From the NCBI GenBank assembly GCA_038259155.1, contig JBBSPE010000002.1:723-64722 (forward strand): 64,000 bases of DNA. The letters are read 5' to 3'. Under the pieces are notes generated by a model. It searched no databases. It was given only the letters and a program-made list of their open reading frames with translations, and was not told the DNA's origin. Of this stretch, positions 5,280-20,519 are shown in pieces; positions within the stretch are counted from its first letter, which is position 1; every line of letters starts with the position of its first letter. The stretch comes from Gemmatimonadales bacterium (GTDB taxonomy: Bacteria > Gemmatimonadota > Gemmatimonadetes > Gemmatimonadales > Gemmatimonadaceae). Position numbers and translations under genes: made by a program.

Positions 5280-5388
5280 GCACCCCCATGTACCCCCTGC
5301 GAGGACAGATCAATCGCGGAGCTCACTTGTGAAAAGTGATGAACAACACCGACTCAACCAAGTCGATACACTTGCCGGGGCCCCTTCG

Positions 5389-7338
5389 ATGAACCCCGCG
5401 GCGGAATGGCTGGAGACCGACGGCCTCGGTGGGTACGCGATGGGGCGTGCCGATGCTGTGCGCACCCGTCGTTATCACGCGCTGCTGACGGTGGCTCGGA
5501 CGCCGCCGACCGAACGGTTTACGCTGGTCAGTGGCCTCGATGTCTGGATCGAGACTGCCGACGGTCAGTTTGCGCTGAGCACGCAGCAGTATCATGGTGG
5601 CATCGCATCGCCGGATGGTGTGTCGCGCTTGGTAGATTTTTCCGCCGTGCCATGGCCAACGTGGCGATATCGATTGCCGAACGGCGTTGAGGTGACTCAG
5701 GAGTTGGTGATGCGGCACGGATCACCCTTGGTGATGCTCGCGTGGCGTCTCATTCGGCCAATGGACGCGCGGTTGGTTGTGCGTCCATTCTTCGCGGTGC
5801 GTGATACGCATGCTCTGACGCACGCGAATGACGTGTTTGATTGGCGAGCGACAGTTGAGGGTTCGCGCCTCGATTGGCGACCGTACCACGGACTGCCGGC
5901 CGTCACCGCGATCACGACCGGCTCCTTCACCGCGGATCCACACTGGTATCGTGATTTTGAGTACGAGGAGGAGCGCGCCCGGGGTCTTGACTTCCTGGAG
6001 GACCTTGCCTCACCTGGAACGTTCCGGTTTGCGCTGGACGGCCACGACGCGTTGCTCGCGTTTTGCAGCAATACGGAAGGTGCGAGTGCCATCACGATCG
6101 ATGAGCCTGTCGTGCTGTGGCAAGACGTGACCCAACGCGAGCGCGAGCGGCGCGGCGCATTCGCAACGCCGCTCCACCGCGCAGCGGATGCGTTCGTCGT
6201 GCAACGCGGCGACGGTCGCTCCATTCTTGCCGGCTACCCATGGTTCACCGATTGGGGTCGAGATACCTTCATCTCGCTTCGGGGGCTCTGTCTCGCAACC
6301 GATCGCCATGATGATGCGCACGCCATTCTTCTCGAGTGGGCTCGGCACGTCAGCGCCGGCTTGCTGCCGAATCGGTTCGCCGACTTTGGCGCAGCACCCG
6401 AATACAACTCGGTTGATGCGGCGCTCTGGTATGTGGTGGCGGTTGAACTGTTTCTGCGAGCCACCGAATCAGATGGGTCGGTGACCAGTCACGAGTTGCA
6501 GACACTCGGCGATGCGGTTGGGGCGATTGTCGATGGATACCGTCGGGGGACCAGATACGGAATTCGTGAGGACGAGGATGGACTGCTGGCGGCTGGCGTG
6601 CCGGGAGTACAACTGACATGGATGGACGCAAAGGTCGGCGACTGGGTTGTCACACCGCGTATCGGCAAGCCTGTCGAAGTACAGGCGCTCTGGATCAATG
6701 CCTTGCATGTCGCGTCTCGCTGGGATGAGACGATGGCTGCGGTCGCTGAACGCGCAACCACCGTGTTTGAAAGTCGCTTCTGGAATGACGCAACCAACTG
6801 CCTGAATGACGTCATCGACGTGAACGGCACGCTCGGACAGATCGATGCCTCAGTGCGCCCGAATCAGTTGCTGGCGGTTGGAGGTTTGCCGTGGACGGTG
6901 ATCAGCGGTGCGCGGGCAGGCCTCATTGTGAATCGGGTTGAAGCGGATCTGTGGACCGATGCGGGGGTGCGCTCGTTGGCACCACACGAAGCGGAATACG
7001 TCGGGGTGTATGAGGGGGACGTTCGCCACCGTGATGGTGCATATCATCAGGGCACCGTATGGCCATGGCTCACCGGTGCGTTCGTGGACGCGTGGGTGCG
7101 GGTTCGCGGTGGTAGCACAGCCGCGAAGCGTGCGGCGGCTGGCCGGTTTCTTGCCCCGATGATCGCGCACTACGATCAGTCTGCGCCGGGCTTTGTAGGC
7201 GAGATTGCCGATGGCGATGCGCCGCACACACCGCGCGGCTGCCCATTTCAGGCATGGTCAGTGGGGGAAGCCCTCTGGTTGCAGGTGGTCGTGTTGCAGA
7301 GCGGACGCAAACAGAGTGGCCGCCCCAAGGTGAACTGA
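5389..7338 (+). CDS. Glycogen debranching enzyme (amylo-alpha-1,6-glucosidase type, GDE_N + GDE_C)
   Basis: EWLETDGLGGYAMGRADAVRTRRYHALL is the N-terminal GDE motif, and GYPWFTDWGRDTFISLRGL is the catalytic-domain motif. I prefer the start at internal Met 21 of ORF 5329-7338. Confidence 0.85.
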   Translation: MNPAAEWLETDGLGGYAMGRADAVRTRRYHALLTVARTPPTERFTLVSGLDVWIETADGQFALSTQQYHGGIASPDGVSRLVDFSAVPWPTWRYRLPNGVEVTQELVMRHGSPLVMLAWRLIRPMDARLVVRPFFAVRDTHALTHANDVFDWRATVEGSRLDWRPYHGLPAVTAITTGSFTADPHWYRDFEYEEERARGLDFLEDLASPGTFRFALDGHDALLAFCSNTEGASAITIDEPVVLWQDVTQRERERRGAFATPLHRAADAFVVQRGDGRSILAGYPWFTDWGRDTFISLRGLCLATDRHDDAHAILLEWARHVSAGLLPNRFADFGAAPEYNSVDAALWYVVAVELFLRATESDGSVTSHELQTLGDAVGAIVDGYRRGTRYGIREDEDGLLAAGVPGVQLTWMDAKVGDWVVTPRIGKPVEVQALWINALHVASRWDETMAAVAERATTVFESRFWNDATNCLNDVIDVNGTLGQIDASVRPNQLLAVGGLPWTVISGARAGLIVNRVEADLWTDAGVRSLAPHEAEYVGVYEGDVRHRDGAYHQGTVWPWLTGAFVDAWVRVRGGSTAAKRAAAGRFLAPMIAHYDQSAPGFVGEIADGDAPHTPRGCPFQAWSVGEALWLQVVVLQSGRKQSGRPKVN

Positions 7339-8099
7339 TCGAAGCAGACAGCGGGACGCGGGAGCACGGCGGGGTGACTCACGCTGGTGAGCGCCGCGCC
7401 TGCGCCATGTGCGGCGTGCTGACAGGGCGCGTGCCAGCGCGTAGCTGGTGCGTCCACATAATACACGTCGGGAAAACTCGGATTCTTCGTGCCAGTGCTG
7501 GCCCACAGCGGTCACTGCCGACGCGCTCCTTTGGCCGCGAGCGCCGCGAACTCCGCGCCGTCGCAAACTTCCGCAAACCGCACGTACGCAAGTTTTGCGT
7601 TGGCAATCGCTGATTTCCCGAGCGTTGCCTACCCTGCGCTTGCCTCGGCCGCACCAGCCGCTAGCTGCGCCTCGAGCAAGGGGTCCACCACGCCGTCCAG
7701 GTGGCTCACGAAGAAACTCGCCACTGACGCGATTTGGTCCAGCTTGCCGCCCGCGGCGGCTCGCTTCTGCAGGCCGGCCATATATGCGTCGCTTGCGGCG
7801 GCGTAGCGTTCGGGAGAAAAGATGAGCGTCACATTGACGTTGATCCCATCGGCAATCGCCGCCTCAATCGCGCCAAGGCCCTCCAGCGTAGCGGGGATCT
7901 TCACCATCAGATTGGGACGTGCCACCGTTGCCCACAGACGGCGCGCTTCAGCCAATCTGCCGGCCGTGTCGTGCGCCAGACGTGGGGAGACTTCGATGCT
8001 GACGTAACCATCCTCGCCACCCGTGCGCCCGTACACAGGGAGGAACAGGTCGGCGGACGCCTGAGCCTCACAGGGGACGTGCGTGAGAGTACGTCGCAT
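7339..8099 (-). pseudogene. tal: Transaldolase remnant (long-form type): N-terminally truncated, with two in-frame stops and a scrambled 3' end
   Basis: ORF 7629-8099 reads ...[18 protein letters not shown]...MVKIPAT...[10 protein letters not shown]...[11 protein letters not shown], which is transaldolase. The same frame continues past TAG (7629-7631) as ATLGKSAIANAKLAYVRFAEV...AKGARRQ, then TGA (7512-7514), then PLWASTGTKNPSFPDV. About the first 85-90 residues (the WLDD and TTNP regions) are absent, and the frame is closed 8 codons upstream of the ATG. Confidence 0.7.
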
Positions 8100-9657
8100 C
8101 GGTTGGAGTTGCTCCGCCCGTGCGGCTCAGCCGCTCGTTTGCGGCGAAGTGTTCAAGAATCTTGAACACGGTTTCTGCTTGACCAGGCACACCTGCGGCA
8201 GCCGCGATCTGGTTTGCCGTCTGCGGCGCCGTTGTAGCACGCAAGGCAAGGAGCACCTCCTGTTGAACGTCCAGCACCGCCGTGGCGGCCTTTTTGCCTG
8301 CTTCGACGCCTGGCTGGTGATATGCGTTCACATTCACCAACGACGCGTACAATCCAACGGCGCGCTCGTACAGGGCGATCAGCGCACCCACCGAGCGCGG
8401 GCTGACATCCGGCAAGGTCAGAGTGATGGATTCACGCGCATTCTGGTGCAGCGCTTCGCGTGTGCCAAGCATGAAGCCCAGCAGGTAGTCGCCGGATGTC
8501 ACATTCGGTTCAACCTGCAACGGCGGGCCGTCCTGATCCGTGAGCACTTCGACAAAGGTCACAAAGAAGTTGTGCACGCCGTCGCGAAGCTGTTGCACGT
8601 AGGCATGTTGATCGGTCGACCCCTTGTTGCCGTAGACGGCGATTCCCTGATGCACGATAGCGCCCGACAGATCGCGTTCCTTTCCAATCGACTCCATGAC
8701 CAGCTGCTGCAGGTATCGTGAAAAGAGCAACAGACGATCTTTGTATGGCAGCACCACCATATCTTTTGCGCCGCGACCATTGCCCGCGTGATGCCACATG
8801 AGCGCGAGCAGCGCCGCGGGGTTGCTCGCGACCGTGGTTTGCCGCGTGGCCACGTCCATTGCGCGGGCCCCATCAATCAGCGCATCGATCTCAATGCCCT
8901 GGAGCGCGGCCGGCAGCAAGCCAACGGCGGAGAACAAAGAAGTTCGTCCGCCAACCCAATCCCACATCGGGAACACGTCGAGCCAGCTGCCTGCCGTCGC
9001 AGTCTTGTGCAGCTCGCTGCCCTCACCGGTGACCGCCACCGCGTGCGGTGCGAAACGCAGACCAGCTTTTTGATACGCAGCGCTGGCCACGAGCATGCCG
9101 TTGCGCGTCTCTTTGGTCCCTCCTGATTTGGAGATCACGAGCGTGAGCGTGTTGGCCAGTCGGTCACCGAGGCGCGCAATCACGCGCGCCATGCCATCGG
9201 GGTCAGTATTGTCGAAAAAATGTGGTTGGAGCCGGTCGGCGTGGGTACCCAGCGCGTCGGCAATAAACTGCGGTCCCAACGCCGATCCACCGATTCCGAT
9301 CACCAGCAGTTGCTCGAAGCGCCCACCACGTTCAGGGCAGATCCTCCCGCCATGCACCGCCGCAACGAACTGGTGAATGCGTTGCTGGGTGCTGATGATC
9401 ACGTCAGCCAGCGCTGGCTCCGGAGCCAGTTCGGGAGCACGCAGCCAGTAGTGGCCCACCATGCGTCCTTCATCAGGGTTTGCGATGGAGCCGCCCTCGA
9501 GTGCCTGCATGTCAGCAAATGCGTTGGCCATGGGCGTGGCCATGCGATCCAGAAAGCCGTCGTCGAATCGCATGCGCGAGATGTCGAGCGAGATGCCAAG
9601 CGATTCGATCACGCAGAGATGCGCCCGGTAGCGCTCCCAAAGTTGGAAAGAGTTCAT
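8068..9657 (-). CDS. pgi: Glucose-6-phosphate isomerase
   Basis: 529 aa counted from [26 protein letters not shown] and [14 protein letters not shown] are typical PGI motifs. Its ATG overlaps the upstream tkt stop (ATGA). The 100 extra N-terminal codons in the ORF track are antisense or out-of-frame noise over tkt. Confidence 0.9.
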
Positions 9658-10437
9658 AACAGCTCCTTGGTAGAGGCCACCACGGCGTCCGCAGTGAATC
9701 CAAACTTCGTGAGTAGTTGGGCGAGCGGTGCCGAGGCGCCGAAGGTGCGCATGCCGACAACGCTCCCCGTGGCTTTCGTGTACCGCTTCCACCCAAAGGT
9801 AGACGCTTGTTCCACGGCAACACGAGCCGTTATCGACGGAGGAAGCACGGCGTTGCGACAATCCTTTGACTGTTTCTCGAACAGCTCCCAGCAAGGCAGA
9901 CTCACCACTCGGCTGCGTATACCCTCCGCCAGCAGTCGCTCGTGTGCCTCGACACACAGCGCCACCTCGCTTCCCGTCCCGATCAGAATCACCTGCGGAT
10001 CGCCGCCCGGCGCACTGGACAGGACATAGCCTCCACGATGCAGTCTGGCGGCCGACGCATAGCGTTCGCGGTCAAGTGTCGGCAACGCCTGCCGCGACAG
10101 GATCAGCGCCACCGGTTCGTGCCGAAGCGGTACAATGGCACGCCACGCTTCAACGACCTCATTGGCGTCGCCTGGCCGAAACACGTGCAGCCCCGGGATG
10201 GCGCGGAGCGATGCGATTTGCTCCACTGGCTGCTGCGTTGGGCCATCTTTGCCAACGCCGATCGAGTCGTGCGTGTAGATGTAGATCACTGGCAGTTCCA
10301 TCAATGCCGACAGCCGAAGCATAGGCCGCGAATAGTCGCTGAAGACGACGAACTGCGACCCAAAGGCCCGTAGCTTCGGCAGGGACATGACAGATCTCGT
10401 TCCACTGACGGATGACACAATCCTCACGGTGGCTGCC
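9654..10437 (-). pseudogene. tkt: Transketolase C-terminal fragment (about 245-260 of about 670 residues)
   Basis: From 10388 downwards the frame reads MSLPKLRAFGSQFVVFSDYSRPMLRLSALMELPVIYIYTHDSIGVGKDGPTQQPVEQIASLRAIPG...RQALPTL...GTGSEV...FGASAP, which is clear transketolase Pyr and C-terminal domain sequence. The next expected upstream motif (G-x-RE-x7-N-x-I) appears only in another frame at 10393-10437. No thiamine-diphosphate-binding N-terminal half is present. Confidence 0.7.
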
Positions 10438-10506
10438 AAGCACACTAGCCAACGCCGTATCCAGCAGAAATGCAGCGCCGACTCTGGGCGGATGTCCGAG
10501 CCAGCG

Positions 10507-11058
10507 CGCCGCCATCGTGATCTGCACGTTCTCGACGAACTGTCGATTCCAGATGAGTTCGAGGAACGTGTTGGCGACGCGGAAAAACACGAGGTTCTGT
10601 ACGGCTTCTCCTCCGAGACAATGATCAATCCGAAATATCTGATGTTCACCGAAGGAACCATGCAGGATCGCGTTCAAACGCTTCGCTGACGTCAGATCGG
10701 TTCCGAATGGTTTCTCCAACATCAGCCGGACGTTGGCGTTCTTGTCGCCCCGGCTTGGCTGCTCGATGGCTGTCTCGAACAGGGTTTGCGGTACGGCAAA
10801 GTAGTGCAAGGGATTCGTCACGTCTCCAAGCGTGTCCTTCAGTCGGTCCACCGTTTCCGGCATCGTGTACTCGCCTTCCACGTAACGCATCAGCTGCATG
10901 AGTTTGGGAAACGCCACCGGGTATATACCACCGCCGTGCTTGGTCACGTTCTCGCCGGCGCGCCTTTTCAGCGCTTCCAATGAACCATCGCGTGCCACGC
11001 CAATCACCGGCACGTCAAGCACGCCGGCCTCTACCATGCTTTGCATGGCCGGAAAGAT
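10507..11058 (-). pseudogene. zwf: Glucose-6-phosphate dehydrogenase fragment (about 184 internal residues)
   Basis: The frame of ORF 10159-11262 reads IFPAMQSMVEAGVLDVPVIGVAR...HYFAVPQTLF...MLEKPFGTDLTSA...QIFRIDHCLGGEAVQNL...RVANTFLELIWNRQFVENVQITMA, which is Zwf. Homology starts 13 nt after the gnd stop, so the GxxGDLxxRK NADP fingerprint is missing. It stops near 10507. The signature peptide RIDHYLGKE is degenerate here (RIDHCLGGE). Confidence 0.65.
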
Positions 11059-11071
11059 TTGGGTGTGGGTC

Positions 11072-12082
11072 TCATTTTTTCTCCGAGTGACCGCCGAACC
11101 CTGCACGCATCGCCGAGAGGACACGATTCGTATAGTCGGCTTCACCACGTGAGGCGAATCGGGAGAACAACGCCGCCGAGAGCACCGGTACCGGCACCGC
11201 CTCGTCGATGGCCGCCTTGATGGTCCAACGACCCTCGCCGGAATCGGAAACGCGGCCAGCATACTCCGTTAGATCAGGCGACTTGAGCAGCGCCTGCGCC
11301 GTGAGATCAAGCAGCCACGAGGTGATCACGCTTCCGCGGCGCCACAGCTCCGCAATCTGATCGAGCGGGAAGTCATACTGGTAGTGTTCGGGGTTTCCCA
11401 GCGGTGTCGTTTCGGCATCATGCTTCTGATCAGCGCGTCCAATGTTGGCGCTTTGCAGAATGCCCAACCCCTCGGCGTACGCTGCCATCATGCCGTATTC
11501 GATACCGTTGTGCACCATCTTCACGAAGTGCCCGGCGCCAGCGTGTCCGCAGTGCAGATAGCCATGGTCTGCGGTCCCGATGCCGGGTTGGCGACCGGGT
11601 GTTGGCGGCGCCGAATCTGTGGGCGGCGCGAGTGATGCAAAGACCGGCTCAAGGTGCGCCACGATCTTCTGTTCGCCGCCGATCATCTGGCAATAGCCGC
11701 GCTCCAGCCCAAACACCCCACCGCTTACGCCCACGTCCACATAGTGCAGCCCGGCAGCGGCGAGCTCCTTCGCGCGACGGATGTCGTCCACATAGTGGGA
11801 GTTTCCACCATCCACGATGATATCGTCTGGTGAGAGGTGCGGAATCAGATCGGCTATGGTCGAGTCAACCACTCCCGCTGGGACCATCAGCCAGACTACG
11901 CGAGGCGTGGAGAGTTCACGTGCCAGATCGGCGAAGGACGCGGCGCCCTCAGCGCCTTCCGCTACCAGCGCTGCCACCGCGTCGGGCGACCGATCAAAGC
12001 CTACTGCCTGGTGGCCGTCCCGCATGAGGCGGCGCACCATGTTGGCGCCCATTCGTCCAAGTCCGACCATACCAATGCGCAT
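11072..12082 (-). CDS. gnd: 6-phosphogluconate dehydrogenase (decarboxylating), short form
   Basis: 336 aa from MRIGMVGLGRMGANMVRRL (Rossmann GxGxxG). GGNSHY, GVSGG and HFVKMVHNGIEYG are typical motifs, and the C-terminus FGGHSEKK is also typical. Confidence 0.9.
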   Translation of the reverse strand: MRIGMVGLGRMGANMVRRLMRDGHQAVGFDRSPDAVAALVAEGAEGAASFADLARELSTPRVVWLMVPAGVVDSTIADLIPHLSPDDIIVDGGNSHYVDDIRRAKELAAAGLHYVDVGVSGGVFGLERGYCQMIGGEQKIVAHLEPVFASLAPPTDSAPPTPGRQPGIGTADHGYLHCGHAGAGHFVKMVHNGIEYGMMAAYAEGLGILQSANIGRADQKHDAETTPLGNPEHYQYDFPLDQIAELWRRGSVITSWLLDLTAQALLKSPDLTEYAGRVSDSGEGRWTIKAAIDEAVPVPVLSAALFSRFASRGEADYTNRVLSAMRAGFGGHSEKK

Positions 12083-12464
12083 GAGTCCCACTCCGCTGAA
12101 TTGTTGGTGTTCGTATACCGCCATCGTCGCCGAGGTGACGGTACCGGCAAGTATCATCGCAGCATCTGCTCAATGGTTCAACACTGCGGGACACGTATCG
12201 GCGGTTCTGAGCACTCGTTGCGGGGGGGGCGGGCCTGGCGGCCGTCCGCGCCCTGAGCGTCGCCTCGGCCAACGAGAGTGCGCCACCAGCCCGGTGAACA
12301 GTTCCTGTCCGCCGGTGCAAGTGTGAACTATCCTGTCGCTTCACAGCTAGTCCATCATCTGCTCGCCGGTGGCGTGGCACTGCTCCTGAGCGCCCTCCTC
12401 TGCCTTTCCGCCAGCCACCGCAGCCGTAGGCCGCTTCTTCCCACAAACCAGCGTCCAGAACACC

Positions 12465-12814
12465 ATGGTCCCTTCGCTGCCGCCCGAACCCAATCTCGTT
12501 GATGTGCTGCGCGCCTTCCCGAGCGCCTGGCCAGCACTGTTTGACGCGCCCGACGCCGTCCTCTGAGCCGAGAGCCCGCTTGCCATCGGCGAACGCGAGC
12601 TCATTGCCGCGCCTGTGTCTGGATTGAACGGTTGCGAGTCCTGCGGGAGTGCGCATACTGTGTATGCGGAGTGCTACGGTTTCTCGCTGGCGCAGGCGAT
12701 CCTGAATGCCGGCTGGCCAGAGCAGGCGATGATGGACACCGTCATGGTAGTAGCGCTGTTCAACTTCATGAACCGTATCGGGCGTACGGGCAGCAGCTGG
12801 GCATTGTGGTGTAA
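12465..12814 (+). pseudogene. AhpD/carboxymuconolactone-decarboxylase-like ORF interrupted by in-frame TGA and lacking a normal 3' end
   Basis: ATG 12465 gives MVPSLPPEPNLVDVLRAFPSAWPALFDAPDAVL, then TGA (12564-12566). The same frame continues AESPLAIGERELIAAPVSGLNGCESCGSAHTVYAECYG...VVALFNFMNRI, which is typical AhpD-like core sequence. The frame then runs antisense into the glucokinase gene, while a different frame stops at 12814. Confidence 0.5.
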
Positions 12815-12822
12815 GCCGGCGG

Positions 12823-13566
12823 TCAGTCTGGCGGCCGTGACGAGCCGTGCGGACGGGCTTCCTCCGAACAGAGTCGAATCGCGTCCGCTCCGGCGAGACG
12901 AAAGCCACCGAGAAAGGCTTGTGCGTTGGAACCGAGTCGCGATCCGTCCGGCAGCGTCTCGATCTTTGACGCATTGCCGCCACCAATCACGATGTCCTCC
13001 ACCAGCAAGGCATCTCGCAGCCGCTGGACCGCGTCGTGCACCCGCTTGTTCCATTTTTTCGGCCCCAGCCGATCGAGGCCGTCGGCACCGAGATAGTCCT
13101 CGAAGGAACGCTTTTTGCGATAGGGCAGTCGAGCAAGTTCGAGTGGGTGCGCGACGTCGTCGAGGATCAAGGCGGAGCCAAGGCCCGTCCCGAGGCCAAG
13201 AAAGAGCATGCGTCCGCCCTCGTAGCTCCCCACAGCCTGCAGCAGCGCATCGTTCACGACCGTGACGGCGCAAGGGAAGGCATGGCCGAAGTCGAACCCT
13301 TTCCATCCCCGCCCCAGGTTTGTCGGCTCCTTCGTGGGTACGTTGCAATTCACCGGTCCCGGAAATCCGATCACCACCGCGTCGTACTGCCATCCGGCGG
13401 CGAGTTGATGAATGGCCTCAACGGCCTGCGCCGCGGTCATCTTGGAGCCGGATTCTACATCGCGTTGCTCCGTCTCACCGGTCACGAGCATTTTGAGTCG
13501 TGAGCCTCCGATGTCGACGACGAGGATCGAGCTGGGAACGCTTGGCAAAGAGTTTTTGTCAGTCAT
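12823..13566 (-). CDS. ROK-family glucokinase (polyphosphate/ATP glucokinase-like)
   Basis: 247 aa. ILVVDIGGSRLKM (phosphate-1 motif) and FLGLGTGLGSALI fit ROK sugar kinases of the short PpgK type. Its ATG overlaps the upstream stop (ATGA). Confidence 0.75.
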   Translation of the reverse strand: MTDKNSLPSVPSSILVVDIGGSRLKMLVTGETEQRDVESGSKMTAAQAVEAIHQLAAGWQYDAVVIGFPGPVNCNVPTKEPTNLGRGWKGFDFGHAFPCAVTVVNDALLQAVGSYEGGRMLFLGLGTGLGSALILDDVAHPLELARLPYRKKRSFEDYLGADGLDRLGPKKWNKRVHDAVQRLRDALLVEDIVIGGGNASKIETLPDGSRLGSNAQAFLGGFRLAGADAIRLCSEEARPHGSSRPPD

Positions 13567-16238
13567 GATGCGGGCGGCTCAGAAACTGTTGGTTCCCGCG
13601 ACGCAAGCGGTAGCAACTCGGCGACCAAGGCGGTCCATCCGGTTTGGTGCGACGCGCCGAGCCCACGTCCATTGTCGCCGTGGAAAAACTCATGGAACAA
13701 CAGCAGGTCGCGAAAATGCGGGTCGATGTGATAAGGCGCGTCGTCACCAAATATCGGGCGGTGACCACTGGCATCCGGCCGGAAGAGCGAGGTAAGGCGC
13801 CTCGCCAGCTCTTCCGCAACTTCCCGTATCGTGGTGAAGTGGCCTGAACCCGTGGGGTATTCAATGCGGAACTCATCGCCGTAATAGTTGTGGAACTTGA
13901 GCAGCGACTCGATGAGCAAGTAGTTGACCGGAAACCAAATAGGCCCCCGCCAGTTGGAGTTGCCGCCGAACGACCGAGTGCGTGACTCGCCAGGCTCGTA
14001 CTGAATCGTGTGCGACGTCTCTCCCAGCGTCACCGTGTAGGGTTGGTCCTGGTGGGCCTTGGACAGCGCGCGAACGCCATGAGGAGCGAGGAACTCGGTT
14101 TCATCGAGCATGCGCGCGAGCAGGCGCTTCATGCGGTGGCCACGCAGGAGAGACAACAGATGGCGCTGTCCCCTACCGGGTTCCTGCCAACGGGACACCA
14201 GCCGCGCGAGATCGGGGCGTTGCTCCAGAAACCAGTTCAGGCGACGCGCAAACTCCGGCAGTGCCTGCAGCACTGAATCGTCGATGACTTCAACGGCGAA
14301 GAGCGGAATCAATCCCACCATGGAGCGCACCTTCAATGGTATGCGCTGTCCGTCGGTGAGGTGCAGGATATCGTAGTAGAACTCGTCCGTTTCATCCCAC
14401 AAACCCACGCCGTCACCACCCATGTCTGTCATGGCCTTGGCAATCGCGAGGAAGTGTTCAAAAAACTTGGTGGCGATGTCCTGGTACACGGGATTGTGCA
14501 GCGCCAGCTCGAGTGCGATTTGCAGCAGGTTGAGCGAATACATCGCCATCCAACTGGTGCCGTCAGACTGATGGAGATGTCCGCCGATCGGTAGCGGCGC
14601 GCTGCGATCAAAGAGACCGATGTTGTCGAGCCCGAGAAAACCGCCCTGGAACACATTCCGCCCATCGGCGTCCTTGCGATTTACCCACCAGGTGAAGTTG
14701 AGCAGCAGCTTGTGAAAGACGCGCTCAAGAAACGCCAGATCTCCGGCATCGCCACGTTGCTCCCGGTCAATCTGGAAGACGCGCCACGTTGCCCAGGCAT
14801 GGACGGGCGGGTTCACGTCACTGAAGGCCCACTCGTACGCCGGCATCTGGCCATTGGGATGCAGGTACCACTCGCGAGTCAGCACATCGAGCTGGTGTTT
14901 CGCAAACGCGGCATCGAGGCGGGCCAGGGGAATGGTGTGAAACGCCAGATCCCACGCAGCGAACCACGGATACTCCCATGCGTCCGGCATCGACAGGATC
15001 TCAAACGTGTCAAAGTGTCCCCAGGTATTGTTTCGTCCGTGACGTCGTTCGGCGGGAGGCGCCGGCTGAGCCGGATCGCCATCCAGCCATCGGCGCACGT
15101 CGAAGCGGTATGCTTGCTTGCTCCAGATCAGCCCGGCACAGGCCTGACGCTGGATGAGGCGCGCATCGGCATCGAGCGATCCATGCAGTCGCTCGTAAAA
15201 GCGGTCGGCTTCCGCGCGACGCCGATCAACCGTACTATCGAAGGCGTGAAACGGACGCTTCCCCTCCGCATTGGTCAGACGCATCCGCACCACGCGTGAC
15301 TCGCCTGAGGGAACGTGCAACTCGTGAAGTACACCTGTTTTGGTGCCCTCTTCTGCTGGATTCACCGCGTCCTGACGCTGTTCAATGATTGCGGCGTGGA
15401 ACGCATCCTTTACATGGCGTTCGTGTGAGTCCGCGCTGTTCCAGAGCCGCGCGCTGTTTGACTCATTGTTTGTGAAGAGCAGTGTGGGGGATCCGTCGGC
15501 GTGCACATGAACGGGCGCTTGCTCCGGCCGCGAGATCAGGAGCGATGCCGCATCGGTGCGCGACATGTTGGGTCGGCGCACATCGTGGTCCCACGACCAC
15601 GTGTTCCGCAGCGTGATTTGAGGCATGACGTGACACGTGGCCGCGTCAGGGCCGCGATTGTGCACGGTCACGCGCATGAGAATGTCATCCGGCGACGCCT
15701 TGGCATATTCCACGACCACATCGAAGTACCGCTGCGTGTCGAAGATGCCCGTGTCTACGAGCTCGAACTCCCCATCATCGATGCCGCGGCGTGCGTTCTC
15801 CTGTATCAGCGTGTCGTACGGAAAGGCCTCCTGCGGATACTTGTACAGCATCCGGAGGTACGAGTGAGACGGCGTCGCGTCGAGATAGTAGTACAGTTCC
15901 TTGACGTCCTCACCATGGTTGCCTTCGGTGTTGGTCAAACCGAAGAGCCGTTCCTTGAGTATCGGGTCACGACCATTCCACAGGGCCAGCGAGACACAGA
16001 TCTCCTGCGCGATATCGCTGAAACCGGCCAGCCCGTCTTCGCCCCATCGATACGCGCGACTGCGCGCATGGTCGTGAGGGAAGTACTCCCATGCGGTCCC
16101 GTTGGCGCTGTAATCTTCGCGTACGGTGCCCCATTGTCGTTCGCTGAGGTACGGTCCCCATCGCCACCAACGACCGTCAGCGTTCTCATCGATCCGCCGA
16201 TCTTCCGCTGATCGATCTGGGGTTGCTTCGTCTGACAC
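13563..16238 (-). CDS. GH63-like glucosidase (MGH1/YgjK-type (alpha/alpha)6 glycoside hydrolase)
   Basis: 891 aa. The N-terminus WWRWGPYLSERQWGTVREDYSANGTAWEYFPHDHARSRAYRWGEDGLAG is characteristic of the bacterial GH63-like 'glucosidase' family as I recall it. Confidence 0.75.
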   Translation of the reverse strand: MSDEATPDRSAEDRRIDENADGRWWRWGPYLSERQWGTVREDYSANGTAWEYFPHDHARSRAYRWGEDGLAGFSDIAQEICVSLALWNGRDPILKERLFGLTNTEGNHGEDVKELYYYLDATPSHSYLRMLYKYPQEAFPYDTLIQENARRGIDDGEFELVDTGIFDTQRYFDVVVEYAKASPDDILMRVTVHNRGPDAATCHVMPQITLRNTWSWDHDVRRPNMSRTDAASLLISRPEQAPVHVHADGSPTLLFTNNESNSARLWNSADSHERHVKDAFHAAIIEQRQDAVNPAEEGTKTGVLHELHVPSGESRVVRMRLTNAEGKRPFHAFDSTVDRRRAEADRFYERLHGSLDADARLIQRQACAGLIWSKQAYRFDVRRWLDGDPAQPAPPAERRHGRNNTWGHFDTFEILSMPDAWEYPWFAAWDLAFHTIPLARLDAAFAKHQLDVLTREWYLHPNGQMPAYEWAFSDVNPPVHAWATWRVFQIDREQRGDAGDLAFLERVFHKLLLNFTWWVNRKDADGRNVFQGGFLGLDNIGLFDRSAPLPIGGHLHQSDGTSWMAMYSLNLLQIALELALHNPVYQDIATKFFEHFLAIAKAMTDMGGDGVGLWDETDEFYYDILHLTDGQRIPLKVRSMVGLIPLFAVEVIDDSVLQALPEFARRLNWFLEQRPDLARLVSRWQEPGRGQRHLLSLLRGHRMKRLLARMLDETEFLAPHGVRALSKAHQDQPYTVTLGETSHTIQYEPGESRTRSFGGNSNWRGPIWFPVNYLLIESLLKFHNYYGDEFRIEYPTGSGHFTTIREVAEELARRLTSLFRPDASGHRPIFGDDAPYHIDPHFRDLLLFHEFFHGDNGRGLGASHQTGWTALVAELLPLASREPTVSEPPAS

Positions 16239-17421: not shown

Positions 17422-17963
17422 TGATCCGGAGTTGAGTCTCGTCACGCTAAAGACAGCGGTATCTCGTGGAATCACCGCGAGCGGGGGGTTATGTCGCGTG
17501 AAGCCGCAGCAGAACACACGTAGCCTGGGCCATCGCGAGCGCTCGTAAACAATGTCTTCACAGCCACTTACAGCGCAAGTGAGCTCTTCCGTCGCGGCGC
17601 GCCACAGCGCAAGTATTGCAGCGTAACGCGAGTCGCCGCCGAGCACGGGCCAAGACGCAACGGCACCTCGCGACGACTGCAGGTCCAGCGGGCTTTGACC
17701 CCACCGATCGCCACGGTTCAGGACGTGCATCGCCAACTCGGCGCCATGGTTCGTGCAGCAGCGTCGCGCCGGCCGCGGGCGAGGATCTCTGGTGGCCGGA
17801 AACAGCCACCACCAAAACGCACAGTGGCTCGTCCGAGTTGGCTCGGAAAGTGCGCCGGCTATCTCCTGCGTGATGCCGCGCAGACTCGCGAATGGTGGGC
17901 AAAGGGTCCACAGCGCATCGATGTCGCGCGCTGGGTTCTGAGGCGGTGTTCATCCGCTGCAAC

Positions 17964-18010
17964 GTCGGGGACGACGGCGTCCGGGGACGACGGCGTCCGG
18001 GGACGAGGGC
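17964..18010. repeat. Three tandem copies of a 15-16-bp unit (GTC(C)GGGGACGACGGC) in the ppsA upstream region
   Basis: Read directly from the sequence: gtcggggacgacggc / gtccggggacgacggc / gtccggggacgagggc. Confidence 0.8.
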
Positions 18011-18131
18011 TACGTGGCGCGGCAGCAGACCGCACCACTCACACGCGGGCGACACCGTAAACGACGCGCCCAGTGTCATCAGCATCCTGTCCTGCTGTCA
18101 GGCAATACCTCTCGTGTCGGCGGCGCGGTAC

Positions 18132-20519
18132 ATGGAACTTGGTATCATGCTACGATGGCTCGAGACGGTCTCGCGGAACGACGTTGGTCTGGTGGGGGGC
18201 AAGAACGCCTCCCTCGGGGAAATGCTCGCGCACCTGGTCGATGAGGGAATCCGTGTGCCCGGCGGCTTCGCGGTCACCGCCGACGGATACCGGGCCTTCC
18301 TCTCCCACAACGCGCTCGAGCCGCGCATGCGCGAGGAGCTGGCCCGGTTGGCCGCCGGTGCACCGCTGCATGAGGTGGGGCAGGCGATTCGTGCGATCAT
18401 GCATGCGGGCGCGCTGCCGGCCGACCTCGCAGATCAGGTGCGCGCCGCCTACGTGGAGCTGGGTCGGCGCTCCGGACGTGAGAATCCGCCGGTGGCGGTG
18501 CGCAGCTCGGCCACGGCTGAGGATTTGCCCGAGGCCAGTTTCGCGGGACAGCAGGAGACCTTCCTCAACGTCGCGGGCGCCGGTGCACTCCTCGAGGCCG
18601 TTCGGGACTGTTTCGTATCCCTCTACACCGATCGGGCCATCACCTACCGAATCCACAACGGATTCGACCATCTCAAGGTGGCGCTGTCGGTGGGCGTACA
18701 GCTCATGGTGCGTTCCGATCGTGGCGCCGCCGGAGTCGCCTTCACCCTCGATACGGAAACCGGTTTCCGCAATCTGATCGAGATCAACGGGGCCTACGGG
18801 CTCGGCGAGAATGTGGTGAAGGGCACCGTGACTCCCGACGAGTGGCGTGTTTTCAAACCGTTGCTCCGCGAAGCGTCGTACACGCCGATTCTCAGCCGGT
18901 CACGCGGAGCCAAGCTGGTGAAGATGGTGCTCGACGCGGCTGGCACCCCGGTGAACATCGACACGAGCCCCGCCGAGCGTGAGGCGCTGGTGCTCGACGA
19001 TACCCAGGTACTCGAACTGGCGCGCTCGTGTGTCCGCATCGAGGCCCACTACGGCATGCCCATGGACATCGAATGGGCACTCGATGGCGAGACGCGCGAA
19101 ATGTTCATCGTGCAGGCTCGCCCGGAGACCGTGCGCTCCCACGACTCGAGTACGCTCACCACGTTCGAACTCGACGAGAAGGGGCCGCTCCTCGCCACCG
19201 GCGTGGCCGTGGGCCAACGCATTGCCGTGGGGCGGGCGTTCGTGCTGGAGAGTATGCGTGACGCCGACCGCTTCGAGGACGGCGGGATTCTCGTGGCGCG
19301 CATGACCGATCCGGACTGGGTGCCACTCATGAAGCGCGCCTCGGCCATCGTGACTGATGCCGGTGGCCGGACGAGTCATGCCGCCATCGTAAGTCGCGAA
19401 CTCGGAATCGCGGCCATCGTGGGAGCGGGCTCGGCCACCACCACGGTGCCTGACGGTGCCATGGTCACGGTGTCCTGTGCCGATGGGCCTGTCGGTCACG
19501 TGTATGAGGGGTCACTCGCCTATCACGAAACTCAGGTTGAACTCAGCGACCTTCCCACCACGCGTACGCAGGTGATGCTCAACATCGCCGATCCCGAGGC
19601 GGCCATGCGCTGGTGGCGCCTGCCGGCGAGCGGTGTGGGGTTGGCGCGCATCGAGTTCGTGATTGAGCACATGTGCAAGGTGCACCCCATGGCGCTGATC
19701 CGCCCAGACGCGCTCACGGCGGAGGTGCGTGCACAGGTGGACAAAGTCACCGCCGGCTACGCGCACGCCCCGGACTTTTTTGTGGCGCGCATGGCCGAAG
19801 GGATCGCAACGATCGCGGCTTCGCAATGGCCGGATCCGGTGATCGTCCGGTTCAGTGACTTCAAGACCAACGAGTACGCCAATCTGTTGGGCGGAGCGGC
19901 CTTTGAGCCACACGAGGAAAACCCGATGCTGGGCTTCCGAGGTGCGTCGCGATACTACAGCGACGCGTACCGCGACGGCTTCGGGCTCGAGTGCCAGGCC
20001 ATTCGGCGGGTGCGCGAGCAGTTCGGGTTCCGGAACGTGGTGGTGATGATCCCGTTCTGCCGCACGCTCGACGAGGCCGATCGCGTGATCGCGGAAATGG
20101 CCAAGCACGGCCTCGTGCGCGGTGAACGCGACCTCGAGGTGTACGTGATGGCCGAGATTCCGAGCAACGTGATTCTCGCGCGCGAGTTCGGCGCCCGGTT
20201 TGACGGCTTCAGTGTTGGCAGCAATGACCTCACGCAACTCACCCTCGGCGTCGATCGTGACAATGAGGCGCTTTCGGCGCTGTTCGACGAGCGCAATCCG
20301 GCGGTGACCCGCTCCATCGAGCTCCTGATCCGCGAAGCCCACGCCGTGGGGTGCAAGGTGGGCATCTGCGGGCAGGCGCCGAGCGACTATCCCGAGTTTG
20401 CGGAGTTGCTGGTGCGCGCCGGCATCGACTCCATCTCGCTCAACCCTGACAGTGTCGTACCCGTGCTGCGGCGTGTCGCGGCCGTGGAGCGGGAGCTCGG
20501 GCAGAGCAGTCTCCGCTAG
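18132..20519 (+). CDS. ppsA: Phosphoenolpyruvate synthase (pyruvate, water dikinase)
   Basis: About 795 aa from MELGIMLRWLETVSRNDVGLVGGKNASLGEM, the classic PpsA N-terminus. It has the phosphohistidine region GGRTSHAAIVSRELG and a C-terminal PEP-utilising domain (GSNDLTQL). The start could instead be 18147. Confidence 0.9.
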   Translation: MELGIMLRWLETVSRNDVGLVGGKNASLGEMLAHLVDEGIRVPGGFAVTADGYRAFLSHNALEPRMREELARLAAGAPLHEVGQAIRAIMHAGALPADLADQVRAAYVELGRRSGRENPPVAVRSSATAEDLPEASFAGQQETFLNVAGAGALLEAVRDCFVSLYTDRAITYRIHNGFDHLKVALSVGVQLMVRSDRGAAGVAFTLDTETGFRNLIEINGAYGLGENVVKGTVTPDEWRVFKPLLREASYTPILSRSRGAKLVKMVLDAAGTPVNIDTSPAEREALVLDDTQVLELARSCVRIEAHYGMPMDIEWALDGETREMFIVQARPETVRSHDSSTLTTFELDEKGPLLATGVAVGQRIAVGRAFVLESMRDADRFEDGGILVARMTDPDWVPLMKRASAIVTDAGGRTSHAAIVSRELGIAAIVGAGSATTTVPDGAMVTVSCADGPVGHVYEGSLAYHETQVELSDLPTTRTQVMLNIADPEAAMRWWRLPASGVGLARIEFVIEHMCKVHPMALIRPDALTAEVRAQVDKVTAGYAHAPDFFVARMAEGIATIAASQWPDPVIVRFSDFKTNEYANLLGGAAFEPHEENPMLGFRGASRYYSDAYRDGFGLECQAIRRVREQFGFRNVVVMIPFCRTLDEADRVIAEMAKHGLVRGERDLEVYVMAEIPSNVILAREFGARFDGFSVGSNDLTQLTLGVDRDNEALSALFDERNPAVTRSIELLIREAHAVGCKVGICGQAPSDYPEFAELLVRAGIDSISLNPDSVVPVLRRVAAVERELGQSSLR

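Follow-up and report, generated by a model that had tools for sequence, protein, structure and literature searches.

Gene content and lesions of the locus

We characterized a pentose-phosphate/glycolysis locus on the minus strand of a 64-kb stretch of Gemmatimonadaceae DNA (contig JBBSPE010000002.1; the whole stretch is hereafter the window), in which gnd and pgi are intact and zwf, tkt, tal and a histidine phosphatase gene are present as fragments. The window is placed in the Gemmatimonadaceae by the relatives of its Pgi, the best matches being 81–84% identical proteins of Gemmatimonadaceae and Gemmatimonadota metagenome-assembled genomes (MAGs); a look-up of the exact Pgi sequence in the contig index gave no record. 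Breakpoints were mapped with blastn and direct sequence comparison, with the corresponding operon of a related locus, L004, as the reference. From upstream to downstream, the features (window coordinates) are:

11072–12082, minus strand: gnd, short-form 6-phosphogluconate dehydrogenase, 336 amino acids (aa) plus stop codon (above NCBIfam cut-offs)
11031–11075, minus strand: zwf start codon (11075–11073, ATGA overlap with the gnd stop codon) and scar of deletion D0 (comparison with L004 and a second relative, L009)
10510–11061, minus strand: zwf fragment (zwf′), residues 22–206 of the 453-aa Zwf, no longer in frame with the zwf ATG (tblastn, Pfam)
10384–10512, minus strand: histidine-phosphatase remnant, last 43 codons (129 nt), fused in frame to zwf′ (blastn, tblastn)
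9654–10388, minus strand: tkt fragment (′tkt), C-terminal 244 codons (residues 440–683 of 683) of transketolase plus stop codon (Pfam, homology)
8068–9657, minus strand: pgi, glucose-6-phosphate isomerase, 529 aa plus stop codon (NF010696)
7449–8057, minus strand: tal fragment (′tal′), residues 88–290 of the 371-aa transaldolase (homology, Pfam)
7339–7448, minus strand: unalignable 110-nt tail, in a position where L004 has the final 81 tal codons (246 nt including the stop codon; comparison)

Both intact genes encode proteins that score above the cut-offs of their families. Gnd matches NF007161 (455.7 bits, cut-off 271) and TIGR00872 (402.1 bits, cut-off 297.2) over residues 1–336 and is 85% identical to L004 Gnd across all 336 residues, and Pgi matches NF010696 over residues 1–515 of 529 (823 bits, cut-off 671), with full-length identities to its relatives of 82–84%. 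The C-terminal tail of Pgi is variable among relatives; derivation of its last six residues from tal was considered and dropped, given this variation and a similarity to tal that is too weak.

Relative to L004, five deletions (D0–D4) have shortened an operon of about 8.5 kb by about 3.8 kb. D0 is a 49-nt deletion directly after the zwf ATG (between about 11066 and 11059) that shifts the frame, takes out the NADP-binding GATGDLA motif and leaves a native zwf frame that ends after 14 codons. D1 (1194 nt) joins zwf codon about 207 in frame to phosphatase codon about 151 (junction about 10512–10508), with a GCCG microhomology at the junction as read from the sequence of relatives. D2 (about 2055 nt; junction 10384–10372) has eliminated the stop codon of the phosphatase gene, pgl in its entirety (none of which remains at the locus) and tkt codons 1–439; GAAGCT stands on both sides of the deleted segment in L004, and the junction makes a new ATG (10388–10386), with ′tkt annotated by the source gene caller as a 244-aa protein (P0001). 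Downstream of pgi, D3 (about 344 nt net) has removed the pgi–tal spacer and tal codons 1–87, and D4 has taken away the tal 3′ end (at least about 135 nt) up to the stop codon (7338) of a convergent gene for a GDE-type debranching enzyme. What is left of tal holds two nonsense codons, TAG at 7631–7629 (Gln in L004) and TGA at 7514–7512 (Arg in L004), for each of which a single C-to-T change suffices. No repeats or mobile-element scars were found at the breakpoints, and 6800–13000 holds only chance short repeats.

The fragments also lack domains and residues that define their families. The zwf′ fragment (75% identity to L004 Zwf by tblastn) covers positions 10–183 of 183 of G6PD_N and only 27 of the 296 positions of G6PD_C; the motif RIDHYLGKE, invariant in six relatives, has become RIDHCLGGE, with loss of the motif lysine, and EPIWN has become ELIWN. 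Zwf therefore has here neither GxxGDLA read from its own start nor the intact nonapeptide together with a complete C-terminal domain. The ′tkt fragment matches Transket_pyr at positions 70–173 of 174 and has no Transketolase_N match, homology to which was found nowhere in the window; its GEDGPTHQP motif reads GKDGPTQQP, where L004, L009 and 14 database homologues have E...THQ. It has neither the three complete domains nor the invariant motif of transketolase (TIGR00232). The last codons of ′tkt still contain an AAGGAG Shine–Dalgarno sequence and the ATGA (9657–9654) in which the tkt stop codon overlaps the pgi start codon. In ′tal′, only positions 70–173 of 285 of TAL_FSA are covered and homology is detectable from 11 nt past the pgi stop codon; the Schiff-base lysine context NLMVKIPAT is kept, and the uninterrupted frame of about 370 aa of the long form (NF002881) is gone. 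The phosphatase remnant was matched to five relatives (L001, L002, L004, L005 and L009), of which L004 and L009 have the full 197-aa gene. No second copy of zwf, tkt or tal lies within the window.

A preliminary description of the locus, made from the sequence alone, had listed full-length gnd and pgi, G6PD homology over about 184 residues, transketolase homology limited to the C terminus, an ATGA tkt/pgi overlap and an absence of insertion-sequence or repeat scars, all of which hold (G6PD homology extends over 184–185 residues at 11061–10510, and the last 244 transketolase residues lie at 10388–9657). Its inventory of fragments stands and had missed the 43-codon phosphatase remnant, the loss of pgl, the 49-nt zwf deletion and the truncation of tal at the 3′ end. 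For tal, the proposed start of homology at roughly residue 85–90 (here residue 88) and the two stop codons were borne out; the proposed onset of homology 32 nt inside pgi was not, as only the open frame reaches there.

Ancestral operon and parallel erosion in relatives

An uninterrupted operon is found in L004 (identical to L082 and L086, which are independent assemblies) and in L009, a more distant relative. The genes run gnd–zwf–histidine phosphatase–pgl–tkt–pgi–tal on one strand with mostly overlapping stop/start codons, and the genes that are damaged or missing in the window have full lengths of 453 (zwf), 197 (histidine phosphatase), 231 (pgl), 683 (tkt) and 371 aa (tal); L004 Zwf, Pgl, Tkt and Tal each score above an NCBIfam cut-off. 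Given these full-length operons, the short forms in the window are not conserved genes. The preliminary description had taken the locus for a formerly normal operon and had named the sharing of the short forms by relatives as one observation that would speak against decay; the relatives have full-length genes, decay stands, and alignment to them also fixed the deletion endpoints given above. The database record of L004 (JAWXBD010000031.1) is labelled Phycisphaerae, and its Gnd and Zwf are 93–95% identical to those of Gemmatimonadaceae MAGs, which suggests that the contig is mis-binned. Another relative, L007 (JAJFLN010000329.1), is labelled Cloacimonadota.

Other relatives display further stages of erosion. 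Four (L001, L002, L003 and L005) have gnd–zwf–(phosphatase)–pgl–pgi without tkt or tal at the locus, and in L001 (3310–3382) and L005 (9932–10003) tkt is reduced to about 10 first and about 8 last codons that form a mini reading frame. In another four (L006, L007, L008 and L010), pgi is preceded by the last 30–170 nt of tkt, with unrelated genes beyond; counting L001 and L005, the 3′ vestiges of tkt range from 25 to 170 nt. The phosphatase is absent from L003 and pgl from L084, and L005 retains 21 phosphatase codons ahead of pgl. As the breakpoints differ among relatives, several independent deletions must have occurred. A purine-rich Shine–Dalgarno-like motif (typically AAGGAG or GAGGAG) precedes the pgi ATG by a few nucleotides in all 11 sequences compared, including L003, which has no recognisable tkt vestige upstream of pgi; where tkt is present, the motif is formed by a Lys codon and a Glu codon close to the end of that gene. 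Selection thus seems to have acted on the initiation of pgi translation while tkt was dispensable. In relatives that lack tkt and tal at the locus, the two genes probably lie in other parts of the genome.

Among 326 Gemmatimonadota genomes, zwf was found in 23% and gnd in 27%, and tkt, tal and rpe in more than 80% (PMC9426454), so that the oxidative branch of the pathway is accessory in the phylum. The loss of pentose-phosphate genes, which the preliminary description had called surprising, is less so given this sparse distribution of zwf and gnd and the absence of tkt and tal from the locus of close relatives.

The convergent tal/GDE arrangement is common to the window, L082, L083 and L086. 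In the latter three, in which the pentose-phosphate operon is intact, GDE is a pseudogene with multiple lesions (L082, 10856–11956): residues about 37–169 and 517–624 are deleted, the frame changes and Trp183 is replaced by a stop codon. Decay is thus reciprocal, with GDE intact in the window and eroded in a sister lineage with an intact operon.

Selective constraint

Using L009 as the outgroup, we compared the window branch with the L004 branch. The fragments carry 60 unique amino-acid changes in the window and 33 in L004 (binomial p = 0.007), compared with 39 and 40 in gnd and pgi together (Gnd, 14 versus 12; Pgi, 25 versus 28), neither of which shows acceleration. When only the residues shared by L004 and L009 are counted, the window departs from them at 60 of 498 positions in the fragments, compared with 39 of 628 in gnd and pgi (Fisher p = 0.0007). 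Constraint is thus relaxed on the fragments, with gnd and pgi under purifying selection. Pairwise ratios of nonsynonymous to synonymous divergence (dN/dS) are low (about 0.1; dS between window and L004, about 1.1–1.4), and the window branch has accumulated an extra dN of only about 0.02, indicating that inactivation happened late compared with the divergence from the L004 clade.

These rates bear on whether the short forms could be functional, ′tkt as a stand-alone C-terminal transketolase subunit or zwf′ as part of a truncated Zwf–phosphatase fusion with a new role. Such functions might be read into the ATG created by D2 and the protein annotated from it, into the in-frame fusion at D1 and into the numerous database entries of about 250 aa with similarity to the Tkt C terminus. 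However, ′tkt begins at Pyr position 70 without the thiamine-diphosphate-binding domain and its invariant THQ histidine is mutated; the database versions begin at an internal Met of a REHAM motif, and the one such case examined (L081) is the latter part of a tkt gene broken by a frameshift. As for zwf′, it is out of register with the zwf start codon, and neither the NADP motif nor the motif lysine survives in it. Relatives have full-length genes, and the fragments change more rapidly than gnd and pgi do. We therefore regard functional short forms as very improbable. A conserved Tkt family of about 254 aa was likewise rejected, as its matches are mostly partial or frameshifted, judging from the sequences and one locus. 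In that locus, on a long contig from ENA (L081, 2084–4765), both rpiB and tkt are split into two called genes, which is typical of assembly indel errors; such pieces enter databases as ‘short transketolases’.

Lesions in independent assemblies

Read evidence came from Logan assembled contigs of two runs of the same study, soil-metagenome run X1 and sediment run X2, which are independent of the window assembly and contain 96% and 13%, respectively, of the sampled words of 7300–12200. Two X1 contigs (2585 nt, covering 8950–11534; 6114 nt, covering 6500–8446) match the window without gaps, and X1 depth is uniform over the locus and its flanks (8.9–10.3×), with all junctions and both stop codons covered. 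In X2, a 164-nt contig extends across both D1 and D2 (10369–10532), and the first tal stop codon lies on another contig, of 259 nt. The X1 contigs differ from the window at four isolated single nucleotides, and no branches or loose ends were found at the junctions in either run. X1 also holds a second pgi variant at 8500–8968, about 9–10% divergent (20 of 217 and 24 of 280 positions) and of similar depth, indicating that a related population coexists in the same soil.

An assembly artefact, in which a collapsed or chimeric locus hides complete zwf, pgl, tkt and tal genes that the true genome has here, could be suspected from the modest depth of the source metagenome (about 9–10×) and from the bubbles that a second strain or species produces in pgi at 8500–8968. 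This is contradicted by the X1 contigs, which reproduce every junction and both stop codons at even depth, by the X2 contig that runs across D1 and D2, and by the unbranched junctions. In addition, no repeats able to cause collapse are present, and collapse can yield neither nonsense codons nor motif substitutions. On the basis of the gap-free, evenly covered X1 contigs and the unbranched X2 contig we reject assembly collapse, the chance of which we consider minimal. The preliminary description had left decay and collapse side by side: full-length relatives and relaxed constraint bear out the former, and the contigs speak against the latter.

The deleted operon could instead be one allele of a polymorphic locus, with a coexisting intact allele through which the population keeps the pathway here. 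Contigs drop rare variants, and the four single-nucleotide differences show some strain diversity. However, no alternative joints or loose ends exist at any junction in X1 or X2, the same deleted form occurs in both samples, and five deletions, two stop codons and several motif changes indicate a long-established allele. We consider polymorphism unlikely, albeit with a small chance of being correct.

Genomic setting

The locus lies among genes of carbohydrate metabolism and others that are intact by Pfam coverage:

741–2678, plus strand: PQQ-dependent dehydrogenase (Pfam PQQ positions 1–595 of 595)
5329–7338, plus strand: GDE-type debranching enzyme (full-length Pfam coverage)
13566–12823, minus strand: ROK-like kinase (intact by Pfam coverage)
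16238–13563, minus strand: GH63/MGH1-like hydrolase (full-length Pfam coverage)
17892–20519, plus strand: PEP synthase/PPDK-type enzyme (full-length Pfam coverage)

Farther along the window, genes for PBP1, cytochrome bd, MCP, a histidine kinase and other proteins are also intact by Pfam coverage. Given the full-length coverage of these genes, decay is local rather than genome-wide.

The kinase is weakly ROK-like (Pfam ROK, 21.7 bits, cut-off 22.9) and scores 40.7 bits against the polyphosphate–glucose phosphotransferase model (cut-off 250); as both scores are below cut-off, its designation as a ‘glucokinase’ is uncertain. In L009, a kinase of another type (Glk-type) lies immediately upstream of gnd. 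The approximately 740 nt between the kinase and gnd (12083–12822) contain no convincing reading frame, and a tblastx comparison of this segment with all the loci studied returned nothing beyond high-GC noise; the segment may have a regulatory role or be what is left of a gene that can no longer be recognised. The GC content at third codon positions (GC3) of the carbohydrate cluster at 5329–16238 (GDE, operon, kinase and GH63) is 0.67–0.71, compared with approximately 0.78–0.81 in the flanks and 0.73–0.78 in the L004 orthologues, and with cluster values below those of the flanks, gene calling by GC3 does not discriminate in this region. An Rfam scan of the window gave no matches, and promoter and terminator scans remained at chance level. 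The best NCBIfam match of the PQQ-dependent dehydrogenase is the membrane-bound glucose/quinate/shikimate family, below cut-off. If this enzyme converts glucose to gluconate, it could, speculatively, supply the retained Gnd by way of a gluconate kinase.

Operon decay and its possible metabolic meaning

The locus combines syntenic intact orthologues, real lesions and relaxed constraint, the hallmarks of pseudogenes, and we interpret it as a locally decayed pentose-phosphate/glycolysis operon of an uncultured soil Gemmatimonadaceae population, with a probability of roughly 85%. The ancestor would have had the seven-gene operon seen in L004 and L009, on one strand and with overlapping stop and start codons. 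In the lineage of the window, zwf, the phosphatase gene, pgl, tkt and tal would have become unneeded, presumably through redundancy or dispensability, and ordinary spontaneous deletions would have eroded them, at least two probably at short microhomologies (GAAGCT for D2 and GCCG for D1). Two C-to-T nonsense mutations would have been added in tal, while gnd and pgi stayed under purifying selection, with pgi probably expressed by continued read-through. Survival of pgi probably owes to the fact that all deletions spared the last tkt codons with their AAGGAG and ATGA overlap. The order of events may also be partly legible: the 43-codon phosphatase remnant has no gene behind it, which suggests that D1 preceded D2, as a 21-codon remnant still stands before pgl in L005.

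Several points weigh against this interpretation. The ancestral junctions and microhomologies are reconstructed from diverged sequence, because the closest relatives share only 82–84% Pgi identity; a scan of metagenome contigs found no Pgi relative above 82–83%, and the true ancestral junction sequence was thus not obtained. A minority intact allele could have escaped contigs assembled at about 9–10×. The rate tests of single fragments are each non-significant (p about 0.1), and no RNA runs containing the locus sequence were found. Finally, the search for paralogues covers the 64-kb window, so that redundancy of the lost functions is a presumption, and gnd is retained although zwf and pgl are lost. 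Constraint on gnd may reflect either a second source of 6-phosphogluconate or a loss too recent for gnd decay to be visible.

A further alternative holds that the free-living soil population has no other zwf, pgl, tkt or tal in its genome and makes pentoses and erythrose-4-phosphate by a noncanonical route or, in a milder form, that what remains of the tkt 3′ end now serves, by exaptation, as a leader frame for translational coupling to pgi. We consider this alternative unlikely. Were there indeed no other copies, Gnd could be fed by gluconate-derived 6-phosphogluconate, for which the PQQ-dependent dehydrogenase gene lies 4.6 kb away, and a sedoheptulose-bisphosphate-type bypass would be needed instead of transaldolase.

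In annotation, the five apparent sugar-phosphate genes amount to two functional ones, and automated pipelines would call the 244-aa Tkt piece and credit the genome with an oxidative pentose-phosphate pathway that the locus cannot supply. The window and its relatives together form a staged series of operon erosion, with independent losses of tkt, tal, pgl, the phosphatase gene or the whole upstream block; most of these deletions spared the terminal tkt nucleotides. The series agrees with the patchy distribution of zwf and gnd across Gemmatimonadota and provides a nucleotide-level illustration of it. The phenomenon itself is ordinary and well resolved, and involves no new mechanism.

Comparison with known systems

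Split transketolases are encoded by separate genes for N- and C-subunits in archaea and some bacteria, and their C-subunit has a whole Pyr domain. The window resembles them in having a stand-alone frame for the C-terminal part of Tkt, but its Pyr domain is truncated (starting at position 70 of 174), no partner gene is present within the 64 kb and the invariant histidine is lost, so that ′tkt does not belong to this class. The linkage of tal and pgi recalls the bifunctional transaldolase/phosphoglucose isomerase (NF007080), with L004 Tal matching the Tal half and window Pgi the Pgi half; however, neither score reaches the family cut-off of 712 bits, pgi and tal are two distinct genes in that order, and the tal of the window is inactivated.

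Actinobacteria and cyanobacteria also have their pentose-phosphate genes clustered in operons, for example tkt–tal–zwf–opcA–pgl. The ancestral locus likewise united oxidative and non-oxidative genes, co-transcribed and with overlapping stop and start codons, but lacked opcA and contained short-form gnd, pgi and a histidine phosphatase gene.

Pseudogene formation in bacteria under deletional bias was reportedly treated by Mira, Ochman and Moran in 2001 and by Kuo and Ochman in 2010. Under such a bias, non-essential genes are inactivated and then lost piecemeal, in steps of tens to thousands of base pairs and often at short microhomologies. Decay in the window is similar in that it involves no mobile elements and leaves selected neighbours intact. 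It differs from genome-wide reduction in being local, within an otherwise intact segment of free-living type, and in that several stages of erosion can be seen across relatives.

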